A stretch of DNA of 4,278 nucleotides, taken from IMG/VR virus record IMGVR_UViG_2703718871_000027; one strand, written 5' to 3'. Shown here one piece after another: positions 1,794 to 3,638 of the stretch. The translations under genes and the position numbers were made by a program. Each line of letters opens with the position of its first letter. The stretch's first letter is position 1. Source of the DNA: a virus (taxonomy: Duplodnaviria; Heunggongvirae; Uroviricota; Caudoviricetes). The notes beneath the pieces were generated by a model. That model worked only from the letters and a program-made list of their open reading frames with translations, was not told the DNA's origin and ran no database searches.

Positions 1794-1833
1794 AAAGACT
1801 GGCGGCACACAGCCACCACCAATCCATTATTGA

Positions 1834-1857: not shown

Positions 1858-1973
1858 GAATAAACGCCATAATACTGAGGTATAACCATGATGAAATATA
1901 CGCCCGTACAGGGGCGGGGATTCGTTCGCCCTGGTGAATCTGAAAAGCCATGCTATAGGGTATTTTCAGGCAT

Positions 1974-2001
1974 AAAAAAAGCGGTCCCGATATGGAACCG
2001 C
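1974..2001 (-). terminator. Rho-independent terminator for the leftward A1-B1 operon (weaker in the + direction)
   Basis: GC-rich hairpin gcggtcc...ggaaccgc (1981-2001). On the minus strand it is followed directly by U7 (complement of the A7 run at 1974-1980). On the + strand it is followed by CTTTCT. Lies about 70 nt downstream of the B1 stop. Confidence 0.55.
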
Positions 2002-2069
2002 CTTTCTGAACAATTAACCCGCTGCGCCGTATGTGTCAACAATCATAAGCCCGAACATGATAACCGTGA

Positions 2070-2273
2070 TCAGGCTGGTGGGCAATTACCTTGCTTGTTG
2101 GGGCCGTATTGTGCTGCCATTTTCATCCGTTCAGAACGTGAATATTTTTTTAGAAACTCATCAAGGACAAAAGCGCATGGAGCGAATCTTTCTGATTCAT
2201 GCTCGAGCGCCATATTTTCGTGCTCTCTGTTCGTTTTTTGCGATGGTGTATTGGTTGATTCTTTATTGGTCAT
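2070..2273 (-). CDS. Hypothetical small protein B1 (67 aa), second gene of leftward cassette-1 operon
   Basis: ORF from ATG (complement of 2271-2273) to TGA (complement of 2070-2072), with a weak SD (AGGT) 7 nt upstream. Paralogous to B2: shared MTN N-terminus, F[AV]L[ED][DE]F..KY.R block and PP[AG] C-terminus. Same 57-nt spacing after the A gene in both cassettes. No recognisable domain. Confidence 0.4.
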   Translation of the reverse strand: MTNKESTNTPSQKTNREHENMALEHESERFAPCAFVLDEFLKKYSRSERMKMAAQYGPNKQGNCPPA

Positions 2274-2294
2274 TGTGTGTACCTGTAAAGCAAT

Positions 2295-2321
2295 GCGCCG
2301 TAGTACCTCACGCCACGGCGC
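2295..2321 (-). other. Conserved hairpin between A1 and B1 (possible partial terminator or RNA processing site)
   Basis: Stem gcgccgt (2295-2301) pairs with acggcgc (2315-2321), 13-nt loop. On the minus strand it is followed by AUUGCUUUA. Nearly identical to the copy at 3036-3062 (one loop difference). Confidence 0.4.
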
Positions 2322-2330
2322 TGATAGTAA

Positions 2331-2510
2331 TTATTCTGATTCTTTGGCCTTGCGGCGCTGGCGGCGTTTGATCTCGCCTTTTGCTGCCGTAACTAGAAAT
2401 CCGGCGGTACTTTCGCCAGGTTCTTTAAGTTGCTCAATATCGGTCATTACCTCATGCGGGATTCTGACCGTTGTCATTTGTGATTTTGCGTTCTTTGCAC
2501 CTGTTGCCAT
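2331..2510 (-). CDS. Ribbon-helix-helix (Arc/MetJ-like) DNA-binding protein A1, 59 aa; putative cassette-1 repressor
   Basis: ATG at complement of 2508-2510, preceded by SD AGGAGA (7-nt spacer); stop TAA at complement of 2331-2333. Sequence MATGAKNAKSQMTTVRIPHEVMTDIEQLKEPGESTAGFLVTAAKGEIKRRQRRKAKESE has the RHH layout: beta-strand (TTVRIP), helix A (HEVMTDIEQL), G-x-S turn (PGES), helix B, basic tail. 63 percent identical to A2 with no gaps. The longer 134-aa track ORF (2331..2735) is rejected because it would cross the promoter/operator region. Confidence 0.65.
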   Translation of the reverse strand: MATGAKNAKSQMTTVRIPHEVMTDIEQLKEPGESTAGFLVTAAKGEIKRRQRRKAKESE

Positions 2511-2530
2511 TTCTGGTTCTCCTGATAATC

Positions 2531-2623
2531 GGTGTATTTCAGTATACGCAAAAAAAAAGATAAAAAAAGTCTTGCGGTGTATTTCACCTGAATGTAGATT
2601 TAAAAATGAAGGTGAAATACACC
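2531..2623. promoter_or_regulatory. Cassette-1 divergent promoter/operator region with three GGTGTATTTCACC-type sites
   Basis: Sites at 2531-2542 (ggtgtatttcag), 2576-2588 (ggtgtatttcacc) and, inverted, 2611-2623 (ggtgaaatacacc). Candidate rightward promoter: -35 TTGCGG (2572-2577), 17-bp spacer, -10 TAGATT (2595-2600). Candidate leftward -10 TATACT (complement of 2541-2546), overlapping the first site. Operators overlap promoter elements as expected for repression and autoregulation. Confidence 0.5.
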
Positions 2624-2634
2624 CAAAACAACAA

Positions 2635-2666
2635 CGCCCCGCAGTGATGGGAACACATACGGGGCG
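2635..2666 (+). other. Cassette-1 rightward leader hairpin (7-bp GC stem) ahead of a conserved RBS and ORF start
   Basis: cgccccg (2635-2641) pairs with cggggcg (2660-2666), 18-nt loop. Followed by TCTAACCAA, SD GAGG (2686-2689) and ATG 2698. The same order of elements occurs in cassette 2 (hairpin 3385-3411, TCTAACCAA, GAGGAG, ATG 3444). Confidence 0.4.
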
Positions 2667-2747
2667 TCTAACCAAACCATTAATTGAGGTAACGATTATG
2701 GCTATAAAAGAGCATAGCTTACTCTTTATACACACACAAACGCCCCG

Positions 2748-2767
2748 GAAACGGAATAATCCGTTTC
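2748..2767 (-). terminator. Weak hairpin at the 3' end of the cassette-2 leftward operon (downstream of B2)
   Basis: gaaacgg (2748-2754) pairs with ccgtttc (2761-2767), loop aataat. On the minus strand it is followed by a G/U-rich stretch (CGGGGCGUUUGUGUGUGU), not a clean U-tract. On the + strand a displaced T-run (2777-2780) follows. Confidence 0.3.
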
Positions 2768-2786
2768 ATAGTTCGGTTTTGTGCAC

Positions 2787-3014
2787 TCATCCTGGCGGTC
2801 GGTTTTTGCCGGATTTAAGCCGCCGTGGGTATTTATCGACAAAATCTTCAAGGGCAAATTTTTCTGGTGGCACTAAGCGCGGCGCTGGTGGTGGTATTTT
2901 TGTTCTGGTTAGTTCTTCCTCAACTCTGGCGCAGGCTTCTGACTGCCTTTGCCGGATGATTTCATCATCTTGCGTTTGCGTGTCTTGTATTGGTGATAGT
3001 GTGTTGTTGGTCAT
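2787..3014 (-). CDS. Hypothetical small protein B2 (75 aa, Pro/charge-rich), second gene of leftward cassette-2 operon
   Basis: ATG at complement of 3012-3014 with SD AGGG 7 nt upstream; stop TGA at complement of 2787-2789. Paralog of B1 with the same gene order and 57-nt spacing after the A gene. No recognisable domain. Confidence 0.4.
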   Translation of the reverse strand: MTNNTLSPIQDTQTQDDEIIRQRQSEACARVEEELTRTKIPPPAPRLVPPEKFALEDFVDKYPRRLKSGKNRPPG

Positions 3015-3035
3015 GATACTGCCCTGTAAAGCAAT

Positions 3036-3062
3036 GCGCCGTAGTACCTCACACCACGGCGC
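3036..3062 (-). other. Conserved hairpin between A2 and B2 (copy of 2295-2321)
   Basis: Stem gcgccgt (3036-3042) pairs with acggcgc (3056-3062). Identical stem and near-identical loop to the cassette-1 copy. Confidence 0.4.
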
Positions 3063-3071
3063 TGATAGTGA

Positions 3072-3251
3072 TTATTCTGATTCTTTGGCCTTGCGACGCT
3101 GGCGGTATTCAACTTCCCGCTTTAATGCAGCTGTAACAAACTGCCCTGTACTTTCGCCGGGCATTTTTACCGCCTCAACATTGTTCATAACTTCATGTGG
3201 AACCCTTGCCGCAACTGTTTGTGATTTTGCGTTTACTGCTTTTGTCGCCAT
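3072..3251 (-). CDS. Ribbon-helix-helix (Arc/MetJ-like) DNA-binding protein A2, 59 aa; putative cassette-2 repressor
   Basis: ATG at complement of 3249-3251 with SD GAGGGG 8 nt upstream (an in-frame GTG 9 nt further upstream is possible but has no SD); stop TAA at complement of 3072-3074. Sequence MATKAVNAKSQTVAARVPHEVMNNVEAVKMPGESTGQFVTAALKREVEYRQRRKAKESE aligns with the Arc repressor fold pattern (beta-strand, P-x-E-V helix A, G-x-S turn, helix B). Paralog of A1. Confidence 0.65.
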   Translation of the reverse strand: MATKAVNAKSQTVAARVPHEVMNNVEAVKMPGESTGQFVTAALKREVEYRQRRKAKESE

Positions 3252-3280
3252 GTTGAGCACCCCTCATAAAAAACAAATGC

Positions 3281-3354
3281 AGTATGCAGGAAAAAAAACA
3301 AGTGTTCAACACTTGACGTGTTTAACACCTCGATTTAAATTGGTGTTCAACACC
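3281..3354. promoter_or_regulatory. Cassette-2 divergent promoter/operator region with three GTGTT-N-AACAC palindromes
   Basis: Palindromes at 3302-3312 (gtgttcaacac), 3318-3328 (gtgtttaacac) and 3342-3354 (ggtgttcaacacc). Rightward promoter: -35 TTGACG (3313-3318), 17-bp spacer, -10 TAAATT (3336-3341); the sites sit upstream of -35, in the spacer, and over the predicted start site. Leftward promoter: -35 TTGAAC (complement of 3304-3309, inside the first site), 17-bp spacer, -10 CATACT (complement of 3281-3286). Confidence 0.55.
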
Positions 3355-3384
3355 TTATTTAGGCAAGGTGTAGAAACGACGAAA

Positions 3385-3411
3385 CCCCGCACTGTAGGAG
3401 CAGTAACGGGG
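3385..3411 (+). other. Cassette-2 rightward leader hairpin (counterpart of 2635-2666)
   Basis: Outer stem ccccg (3385-3389) pairs with cgggg (3407-3411); inner stem actg (3391-3394) pairs with cagt (3401-3404); loop taggag. Followed by TCTAACCAA, SD GAGGAG (3433-3438) and ATG 3444. Confidence 0.4.
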
Positions 3412-3443
3412 CTTCTAACCAACAACGTAAACGAGGAGCCGTT

Positions 3444-3638
3444 ATGGTTGCCGTAAATCATATACCACACCTTGTACACACACAAACGGCCTTTGTGTGG
3501 CGTTTTCTGGCACTGAGTGCCGGAGAATCTCAAATAATCCACGTAACCGCCTGGACGGAACGCGAAGCACGTAACCGTTGCCCGTCAGGTTGTGTTGCTG
3601 TATTCGCCGCCCGTATTCGCCAGGGGGTAGGCTTATGA
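3444..3638 (+). CDS. Hypothetical protein (64 aa), first gene of rightward operon
   Basis: Strong SD GAGGAG with 5-nt spacer to ATG 3444. N-terminus M-[AV]-[IV]-x-x-H-x-x-x-[FL]-[IV]-H-T-Q-T is shared with the cassette-1 start at 2698. Stop TGA (3636-3638) overlaps the next ATG (ATGA), indicating translational coupling. Caveat: hairpins lie inside codons 12-27, so the 5' part may act as RNA. Confidence 0.45.
   Translation: MVAVNHIPHLVHTQTAFVWRFLALSAGESQIIHVTAWTEREARNRCPSGCVAVFAARIRQGVGL
3479..3508 (+). terminator. Terminator/attenuator-like hairpin inside the 5' end of ORF 3444-3638
   Basis: cacacaaa (3479-3486) pairs with tttgtgtg (3492-3499), loop cggcc, followed by GCGTTTTCT (3500-3508). 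A second hairpin follows immediately: ctggcac-tga-gtgccgg (3507-3523). Confidence 0.3.

Follow-up and report, generated by a model that had tools for sequence, protein, structure and literature searches.

A conserved hairpin joint between the two genes of tandem repressor-like cassettes in an Escherichia coli satellite island

Introduction

Why should two operons whose genes have drifted far apart agree almost base for base in the short segment that joins those genes? The question is raised by a 4,278-nucleotide stretch of DNA from a Caudoviricetes virus (IMG/VR record IMGVR_UViG_2703718871_000027), the whole of which we call the window and whose positions are used throughout. Its minus strand carries two tandem cassettes, each an operon of two small genes, A and B: A1 and B1 form cassette 1, next to icd, and A2 and B2 form the promoter-distal cassette 2. 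A preliminary description of the window singled out a block of about 85 bp at the joint between A and B, comprising the last codons of A, the stop codon, a GCGCCGT/ACGGCGC hairpin and the ribosome-binding region of B. It put the identity of the block between cassettes at about 96%, within flanks of about 65%, and offered two explanations, a recent gene conversion or constraint on an RNA or DNA element.

Here we compare the joint between the two cassettes and across its relatives. Judged by these sequences, the block is real and kept by selection throughout the family. We tentatively read it, at a probability of roughly 0.4, as an attenuator or 3'-end stabiliser between A and B that is also a recombination joint, and a partial terminator setting the A:B ratio appears to be the most plausible mechanism.

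Results

Conservation of the A-B joint

When the cassette copies were compared without gaps on the minus strand, the near-identity of the joint was borne out. Positions 2282-2366 and 3023-3107 agree at 80 of 85 bases (94%) and the core of the block (2282-2364 and 3023-3105) at 80 of 83 (96%), with mismatches at 2355, 2329 and 2312; the three mismatches first reported are those of the core, and the full 85 bp contain five, the remaining two sitting at the far A-side end (2365 and 2366). The flanks are more diverged, as had been stated: identity is 62% over the 144 nt of A coding sequence upstream of the block and 38% (ungapped) over the first 90 nt of B, B1 and B2 being hardly alignable, and only one base in eight agrees in the spacer from AGG to the ATG of B. 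Against a background of 62%, at least 80 matches in 85 have a probability of 7e-12. The content of the block was also as described, in the order A last codons (..RRQRRKAKESE), TAA, 9 nt, GCGCCGT-N13-ACGGCGC, AUUGCUUUAC-AGG, N8 and the ATG of B. Chance alone would yield a 7-bp stem a few times per 4 kb, and the hairpin by itself is statistically unremarkable; its significance lies in its conservation.

Relatives were gathered without using the hairpin as bait. Anchoring on protein A gave 33 loci from GTDB species genomes and 80 viral-contig loci, anchoring on protein B a further 113 viral-contig loci, and several annotated E. coli regions were added. All 113 loci fetched through the B protein have a 54-nt B leader without insertions or deletions, of which there are likewise none among its 46 distinct variants. 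The leader is kept whatever the upstream gene, be it a 59-aa YlcI/YnfO gene of any of six types, a longer form or a gene for a non-homologous Arc-like protein; in E. coli O157:H7 EC4115, where the upstream gene is Arc-like and bears no similarity to A, homology begins directly after the stop codon. Where B is missing from an island, so is the hairpin, even though the A tail is unchanged. Of 5426 complete E. coli genomes, 1613 contain the block, some at as many as six places. The copies in E. coli number about 2150, and the E. coli matches of lowest identity were variants already in our sample, so that sequence diversity within this species appears saturated. A query of the phage database with the block returned no match.

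A covariance model built from the 46 variants (R1) found nothing in the 33 loci of other genera, and the YlcI/YnfO genes of Xenorhabdus, Serratia, Pectobacterium, Klebsiella and others are without the element. At the corresponding place these genera usually have unrelated stable hairpins, many of them canonical terminators, and 19 of 41 distinct downstream regions have z-scores below -2. The preliminary description had counted homologues lacking the hairpin as evidence against its proposal; they do exist, as islands without B and as YlcI/YnfO genes of other genera, whereas every B gene examined has the hairpin. One locus outside E. coli, in Edwardsiella hoshinae NBRC 105699 (L005), encodes an A protein that equals A1 at residues 1-57, ends in ..KAKEQPK and has neither hairpin nor B downstream, which is consistent with the reported spread of such islands across genera. 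The model also recovered a single diverged copy, at 1679-1735 of locus L038 (41 bits). In that region (1480-2120, + strand) the hairpin leader, in whose upper stem one G-C pair has become A-U by a double change, lies ahead of another small open reading frame (ORF), and two more B-like ORFs stand in series (motifs ..FPLEDFI.. and ..FPLERFI..), which suggests that B-like genes can be multiplied.

Conservation within the joint is uneven. Computed on 37 unique sequences, mean pairwise identity is 0.955 in the 5' arm of the stem, 0.855 in the 3' arm and 1.0 at both AGG and ATG; it is 0.52 in the 8-nt spacer between these two signals and 0.62 at third codon positions of A, with 0.91 at codon positions 1 and 2 of the A tail. 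The stop codon and the stem are 9 nt apart in 200 of 202 instances and behind 51 of 52 distinct upstream proteins. As far as these alignments tell, conservation is position-specific and shaped like a set of signals, unlike a uniform patch of recent homology. Together with the lack of indels, this pattern supports the second explanation first offered for the block, constraint on an RNA or DNA element.

Recombination at the joint

The first explanation, that the cassettes of this genome were recently homogenised or converted, leaving a near-identical segment without function of its own, we now regard as very improbable. It would account for copies that differ by three to five bases within flanks that are about 40-62% identical, and recombination within the block does happen in the family. 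However, the same sequence stands in single-cassette islands and behind unrelated A genes, and the hairpin variant of each window copy recurs next to its B type in other islands, downstream of other A genes: the cassette-2 variant (GGCGUGAGGUACUAC) goes with B2-type genes and the cassette-1 variant with B1-type genes. The differences between the copies are identical across eight two-cassette genomes, and hence there is no sign of ongoing homogenisation; copies are not more alike within a genome, and the identity occurs at other loci. Moreover, the adjoining 8-nt spacer is so unlike between the cassettes that a conversion tract would have its boundary exactly at the functional signals. On these comparisons conversion appears largely refuted already and is not needed to explain the block, nor does its family-wide retention fit a tract that lacks conservation elsewhere.

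Recombination has nevertheless left its mark on the joint in another way. A and B types reassort, A type 0 occurring with 8 B types and B type 2 with 3 A types, and some recombinants have their crossover inside the loop or stem (the L090-type and the middle cassette of L123). The latter locus (E. coli UC4224, NZ_CP104472.1 4893380-4897774) has three cassettes in series, an Arc-like gene with a B2-type gene, the A of cassette 2 with a B1-type gene (crossover in the block) and A1 with B1; about 1.4 kb of DNA separates the first and second. As a conserved stretch between modules that have otherwise diverged, the joint most likely also serves as a crossover point at which A and B alleles are reshuffled, and this would explain why two cassettes with genes of about 60% identity share it almost unchanged.

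Could the block be kept for this purpose only, as a linker or a hitch-hiker with recently spread modules, with no RNA function beyond the ribosome-binding site of B? Free reassortment and the internal crossovers speak for this possibility, as does the confinement of the element to E. coli-type islands, so that it may be young. We consider it improbable, however, because conservation is far higher in the stem arms than in the spacer, 20 nt distant, or at third codon positions of A, because the substitutions that survive in the stem favour pairing on one strand, and because neither the 9-nt nor the 54-nt spacing has suffered an indel in the 46 variants.

RNA structure and strand

In the alignment of the 46 variants, about 90% of basal-stem cells are paired, and the changes are one-sided and mostly to G.U. 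Over the seven basal pairs, 19 variant cells pair only on the A/B-sense strand, through G.U, against 3 that pair only on the opposite strand, and the sense-strand hairpin is the more stable in 43 of 46 variants (mean -15.1 against -11.1 kcal/mol). Such a bias is suggestive, not conclusive, of an element that acts in the A/B mRNA. In the window itself, the minimum free energy of the 76-nt hairpin segment on the minus strand is -24.3 kcal/mol for cassette 1 and -16.9 kcal/mol for cassette 2.

Alternatively, the element might act on the other strand or as DNA, be it as a palindrome bound by a protein, as a signal in a late + strand transcript resembling that of P4 eta (see below) or as the terminator of an antisense small RNA (sRNA) over the ribosome-binding site of B. 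We think this distinctly unlikely, even though the inverted repeat is perfect over 7 bp, the + strand is transcribed and apparently translated across the block in the induced state, and the arrangement of a small ribbon-helix-helix gene, an intercistronic element and a second gene parallels arc-ant of phage P22. On the + strand, surviving stem variants give rise to A.C mismatches and the hairpin is generally weaker, and a translated ORF would melt it. No + strand U-tract lies close by, and no + strand promoter-like site was found near 2230-2300 or 2970-3040, a weak test that covered consensus sigma-70 sites only; a P22 sar-type arrangement was not seen. In addition, each A type appears to rely on allele-specific palindromes of its own elsewhere.

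On the A/B-sense strand, both copies have the GC-rich stem and short loop of an intrinsic terminator (folds in Table 1), and a consensus scan scored the cassette-1 copy as terminator-like, with the tail ATTGCTTTAC. Several observations weigh against an attenuator or stabiliser all the same. The fold z-scores are modest (-2.8 for cassette 1 and -1.2 for cassette 2). The U-tract of the window, AUUGCUUUAC, has 5 U in 8, in contrast to the UUUUUUU of the terminator after B, and it is not conserved in the family; variants such as AUUGCUAUGC and ACAGGGUUAC have at most 4 U, so that intrinsic termination by some of them would be poor. At the top of the stem the pair is frequently open, with U-C in 17 of 46 variants. 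The apical loop, (G)UGAGG, shows more conservation than a terminator alone would call for, which hints at sequence-specific recognition. The coding signature of B is weak. Finally, three tests (RNAalifold and two pair-count tests) found no significant compensatory covariation: none of 9 hairpin pairs changed on both sides according to RNAalifold, both-sided change occurs in 1 of 460 cells of the 46-variant alignment, and 280 and 499 of 500 shuffles reached the observed covariation score. The alignment of homologous cassettes proposed at the outset has accordingly shown a hairpin conserved wherever B occurs, but not compensatory changes at a significant level.

The conserved loop could point to an RNA operator, bound by the arginine-rich tail of A, by B or by a host factor, that controls translation of B or the fate of the mRNA. 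Conservation of the loop and the extended stem comes close to that of the basal stem, the loop displays a Shine-Dalgarno-like GAGG, and the RRQRRKAKE tail has been inherited together with the hairpin by three or more different A bodies. Arc-like A genes without a basic tail keep an identical hairpin, however, and the GGA of CsrA sites is absent from the loops (GAGGUAC) and Shine-Dalgarno sequences (CAGGU, CAGGG) of both window copies, so that we judge an operator of this kind unlikely. A CsrA-regulated leader was rejected for the same reason, GGA being found in some family variants only.

Three further candidates were set aside. A fusion of A and B by read-through or frameshifting was considered since B is in frame across a 57-nt gap and the hairpin stands 9 nt past the end of A, a placement seen in recoding signals. 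In 11 of 46 variants, however, the gap is interrupted by in-frame stops, and A itself ends variously in TAA, TAG or TGA. An element like a selenocysteine insertion sequence (SECIS) fails because the stop is not fixed as UGA. A 7-codon mini-ORF (TTG..TGA over the ATG of B), present in both window copies, has lost its TTG in several variants, for example in CACAGGG.

The antisense frame and candidate operators

Both cassettes lie opposite a + strand frame that remains free of stops for 522 codons, whereas the other two + frames have 27 and 47 stops. A corresponding frame, which spans the promoter region of A, is open for about 190-765 codons in almost all of some 140 distinct island contexts, with any A or B alleles; its counterpart at the EC4115 locus (L002) is 2006-2950 (-). 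In about 70% of contexts the frame is in phase with the Icd-like gene and ends with it, and most of the others stop within about 30 nt of the icd ATG. The coordinates place third codon positions of the + frame opposite those of A and B, and keeping that frame open should thus cost mostly synonymous choices.

Translation of the + frame yielded no domain and is not protein-like. Phage P4 offers a parallel: P4p10, its 137-aa 'cI' ORF (eta), has the Icd-like/Kil domain NF033153 at its C-terminus (residues 85-132), as a 314-aa ORF of EC4115 does at 266-309. BLASTP of P4 eta against the Icd protein of the window gave no match, although both match this same NCBIfam domain, and a search of the phage protein collection with the Icd-like gene returned one distant match and did not recover P4. 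In P4, as one account has it, translation of eta from the upstream late promoter prevents premature termination (PMC10111431). By these sequence relations we identify the + frame of the window as the putative counterpart of the N-terminal extension of P4 eta, and its lack of stops together with this likeness would place the repressor cassettes of phage-inducible chromosomal islands (PICIs) antisense inside an eta-like translated leader.

The need to encode the A tail while keeping the opposite frame open might itself have conserved the block. The + frame is indeed free of stops across the block in every island examined, and the A tail is under amino-acid constraint, as its codon positions 1 and 2 show. 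However, stop avoidance removes few options and holds equally for flanks that are poorly conserved, 57 of the 85 bases lie outside minus-strand coding sequence, and the eta-like translation is not conserved as a protein and has no Pfam domain. Dual coding is for these reasons a highly improbable account. We also discarded the idea that the + strand encodes a Bro-N/Ant-type protein and B is spurious: no Pfam domain occurs in the eta-like ORFs, the sole signal being a Bro-N remnant in one relative (E = 0.07), and the AGG-N8-ATG of B is invariant.

Upstream of the A genes lie palindromes that differ with the A type. The sequence GTGTTNAACAC stands in triplicate in all 31 type-0 regions and is absent from other A types, and the GGTGAAATACACC pair occurs only with A type 1. 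These distributions suggest candidate allele-specific operators and hence stacked, immunity-like modules, which in the window would be a tandem of two with different specificities. The cassettes also share a second patch (2637-2750 and 3385-3490, + strand), in which a hairpin, CCCCGC..N..GCGGGG/ACGGGGC, is followed by UCUAACCAA and by an Icd-like start (..HTQT..); the icd copy of cassette 2 is a 5' fragment only, running into the antisense B1. By position, this patch may correspond to the CI-RNA/leader region of P4; it has no Rfam match.

Proteins A and B

Both A proteins match the NCBIfam YlcI/YnfO model (NF041551) well above its cut-off of 30 bits, A1 with 59.7 and A2 with 62.1, and the PGAP name agrees. 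In an AlphaFold model of A (pLDDT 83), an N-terminus in extended conformation precedes helices at 19-28 and 35-58. Foldseek placed the ribbon-helix-helix antitoxin 7b22 (ParD2) and 1xrx_A, a 35-residue DNA-binding protein, among the best matches of this model, all at E > 1 and not significant. The model is compatible with a ribbon-helix-helix fold, which A probably has, and an Arc-like protein fills its slot in EC4115. In that island, of the EcCIEDL933 type, the Arc-like ORF (L002, 2334-2507, + strand) is an unannotated 57-aa frame matching phrog_228 (E = 1.5e-6); the same hairpin and B follow it, and PGAP annotates an 'Icd-like pseudogene' on the other strand instead. The only homologues found for the B family (phrog_21027) are hypothetical proteins of E. 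coli. Sequence searches of the PDB gave no match for either A or B, and literature searches on YlcI/YnfO and PICI repressors yielded no functional work on A, B or the hairpin.

Genomic context of the cassettes

The window is the left end of a capsid-forming PICI/P4-like satellite island of E. coli. A 99.5%-identical copy is found in E. coli strain 10, flanked by tqsA and by capsid, protease, portal and terminase genes. The gene order of that island (integrase, AlpA-type regulator, two opposite-strand pairs of small genes, Icd-like gene, RepA helicase, SSB, PerC and head genes) matches the layout of capsid-forming PICIs (bioRxiv 10.1101/2022.09.08.507074). The features of the window are collected in Table 1.

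Table 1. Features of the window around the two A-B cassettes.
Feature	Positions	Strand	Description
A1	3072-3251	-	59 aa, YlcI/YnfO family, 61% identical to A2, tail shared with A2
A2	2331-2510	-	59 aa, YlcI/YnfO family, basic tail RRQRRKAKESE
B1	2787-3014	-	75 aa, second B subfamily, motif ..KFALEDFVDKYPRRLK..NRPPG
B2	2070-2273	-	67 aa, motif ..ERFAPCAFVLDEFLKKY.., phrog_21027, homologues found in E. coli only
Conserved block, cassette 2	2282-2366	-	last 11 codons of A2, TAA, 9-nt spacer, hairpin, U-rich tract, AGG of the B2 ribosome-binding site
Conserved block, cassette 1	3023-3107	-	parts as in the cassette-2 block
Hairpin, cassette 2	2295-2321	-	inverted repeat 2321..2295; GCGCCGU GGCGUGAGGUACU ACGGCGC; fold of 9 pairs, 9-nt loop
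Hairpin, cassette 1	3036-3062	-	inverted repeat 3062..3036; GCGCCGU GGUGUGAGGUACU ACGGCGC; fold of 11 pairs including G.U, 5-nt apical loop UGAGG
Canonical intrinsic terminator ending the A-B operon	1975-2008	-	8-bp core stem, 14 pairs in the fold through flanking A/U runs, then UUUUUUU
Second terminator, directly 3' of the alpA stop	1796-1825	-	terminator-like hairpin
Three GTGTTNAACAC palindromes around a promoter-like site (3313-3341, +), A1-icd gap	3302-3353		candidate A1-specific operators
Inverted pair GGTGTATTTCACCT / AGGTGAAATACACC, upstream of A2	2576-2623		candidate A2-specific operator
Stop-free 522-codon frame antisense to both cassettes	1888-3456	+	begins 95 nt past alpA; ends 10 nt past the icd ATG, out of frame
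Icd-like (Kil-like) gene	3444-3638	+	first gene of the rightward replication/packaging operon

A and B are taken to form an operon because a canonical terminator follows B2 (-23.7 kcal/mol, z = -3.4) and a second lies beyond it; with the true operon terminator after B, the two genes would be co-transcribed unless the joint stops transcription. The second hairpin would shield alpA from leftward A-B transcripts. Between alpA and the start of the long + frame there is also a perfect 9-bp palindrome (CCGATACCG-GGATCT-CGGTATCGG, 1844-1866). A cmscan of the whole window against Rfam (E <= 1) gave no family at either block, and its sole match was a sub-threshold hit to BSnc120, a Brucella sRNA, at 1381-1462 on the + strand (27 bits where the gathering score is 114; E = 0.003). 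This hit falls in the AT-rich stretch that separates int from alpA and is probably a terminator-like hairpin and nothing more.

Discussion

We propose that the joint acts in the A/B-sense mRNA. On the minus strand, a promoter would drive first A, a small repressor candidate of ribbon-helix-helix type, then B, up to the strong terminator. Between the two genes, the basic C-terminal tail of A, its stop and the fixed 9-nt spacer lead into a GC-rich hairpin, with a 7-bp basal stem, up to four further pairs and the apical loop UGAGG, behind which a U-rich tract of 10 nt, the Shine-Dalgarno AGG of B, a free 8-nt spacer and the ATG follow. This structure might work as a weak intrinsic terminator, as a stem that protects the 3' end, possibly after cleavage in the AU-rich tract, or as both. 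If most A messages were ended or stabilised at the joint, A would be made in large excess of B, and read-through may hinge on whether the ribosome that terminates at the A stop, 9 nt upstream, hinders formation of the stem.

A wider view of the locus is conceivable, though we hold it to be rather unlikely. In one account of Gram-negative PICIs, AlpA is the known activator, no repressor is identified and the global repressor is called 'unclear' (PMC6092414). The A-hairpin-B cassettes could be exchangeable protein-repressor immunity modules of these islands, each A allele having its own operators, that lie antisense in a translated, non-protein leader resembling P4 eta, so that the joint would be read on both strands. 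In the repressor mRNA it would attenuate expression from A to B; in the late transcript it would be passed only by ribosome-covered RNA. At the DNA level it would let satellites stack or swap immunity specificities, as in the two cassettes of the window and the three of UC4224.

No other non-coding element of this small repressor-like operon, which about 30% of complete E. coli genomes carry, is as conserved as the joint. Should the joint control the A:B ratio or how stable the A mRNA is, it would be part of the switch that keeps satellites silent, and as the mark of a recombination site between immunity-like modules it offers a handy tag by which such cassettes can be found and typed. It is an intercistronic stem-loop of an ordinary kind, which refines annotation and overturns nothing, and its interest rests mainly on its regulatory context.

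How does the joint compare with known systems? Weak intrinsic terminators and 3' stabilising stem-loops are found inside operons, for example the rpsU-dnaG terminator and the repetitive extragenic palindromic (REP) stem after malE. Like these, the joint is a GC-rich stem-loop between co-transcribed genes, with a U-rich tract 3' of the stem and the real operon terminator further downstream, and in both cases an excess of the upstream product would be expected. Unlike them, it is specific to a satellite family and has no Rfam match, its U-tract is imperfect and variable, its loop is conserved and its distance from the stop is fixed at 9 nt.

In the immI region of phage P22, arc, which encodes a ribbon-helix-helix repressor, is followed by an intercistronic region and ant, and there is an antisense RNA, sar. 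The cassettes resemble this region in that a very small gene of the ribbon-helix-helix repressor type comes first, truly Arc-like in some satellite islands, and in that a short conserved intercistronic element bears the ribosome-binding site of the second gene, both genes being co-transcribed. They differ in that B, at 57-75 aa, is unrelated to Ant, that the consensus scan gave no antisense promoter and that the pairing bias is towards the sense strand.

Mosaic lambdoid phages have conserved boundary or linker sequences at the junctions of their modules. The joint is likewise a short conserved stretch between diverged, freely reassorting modules, with crossovers inside it, but its conservation has the shape of an RNA hairpin with translation signals, not of uniform homology. 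Finally, the likeness to P4 eta/kil concerns the context and not the hairpin: a long ORF past the alpA/vis homologue ends in an Icd-like/Kil domain, as in the P4 account (PMC10111431). Here the extension has 200-550 codons against about 84 in P4, lacks a protein-like sequence or domain and runs antisense to one to three repressor cassettes, and the frame of the window is not fused to icd. The window also differs from the P4 CI-RNA immunity leader in having no Rfam match to CI/C4 RNA.

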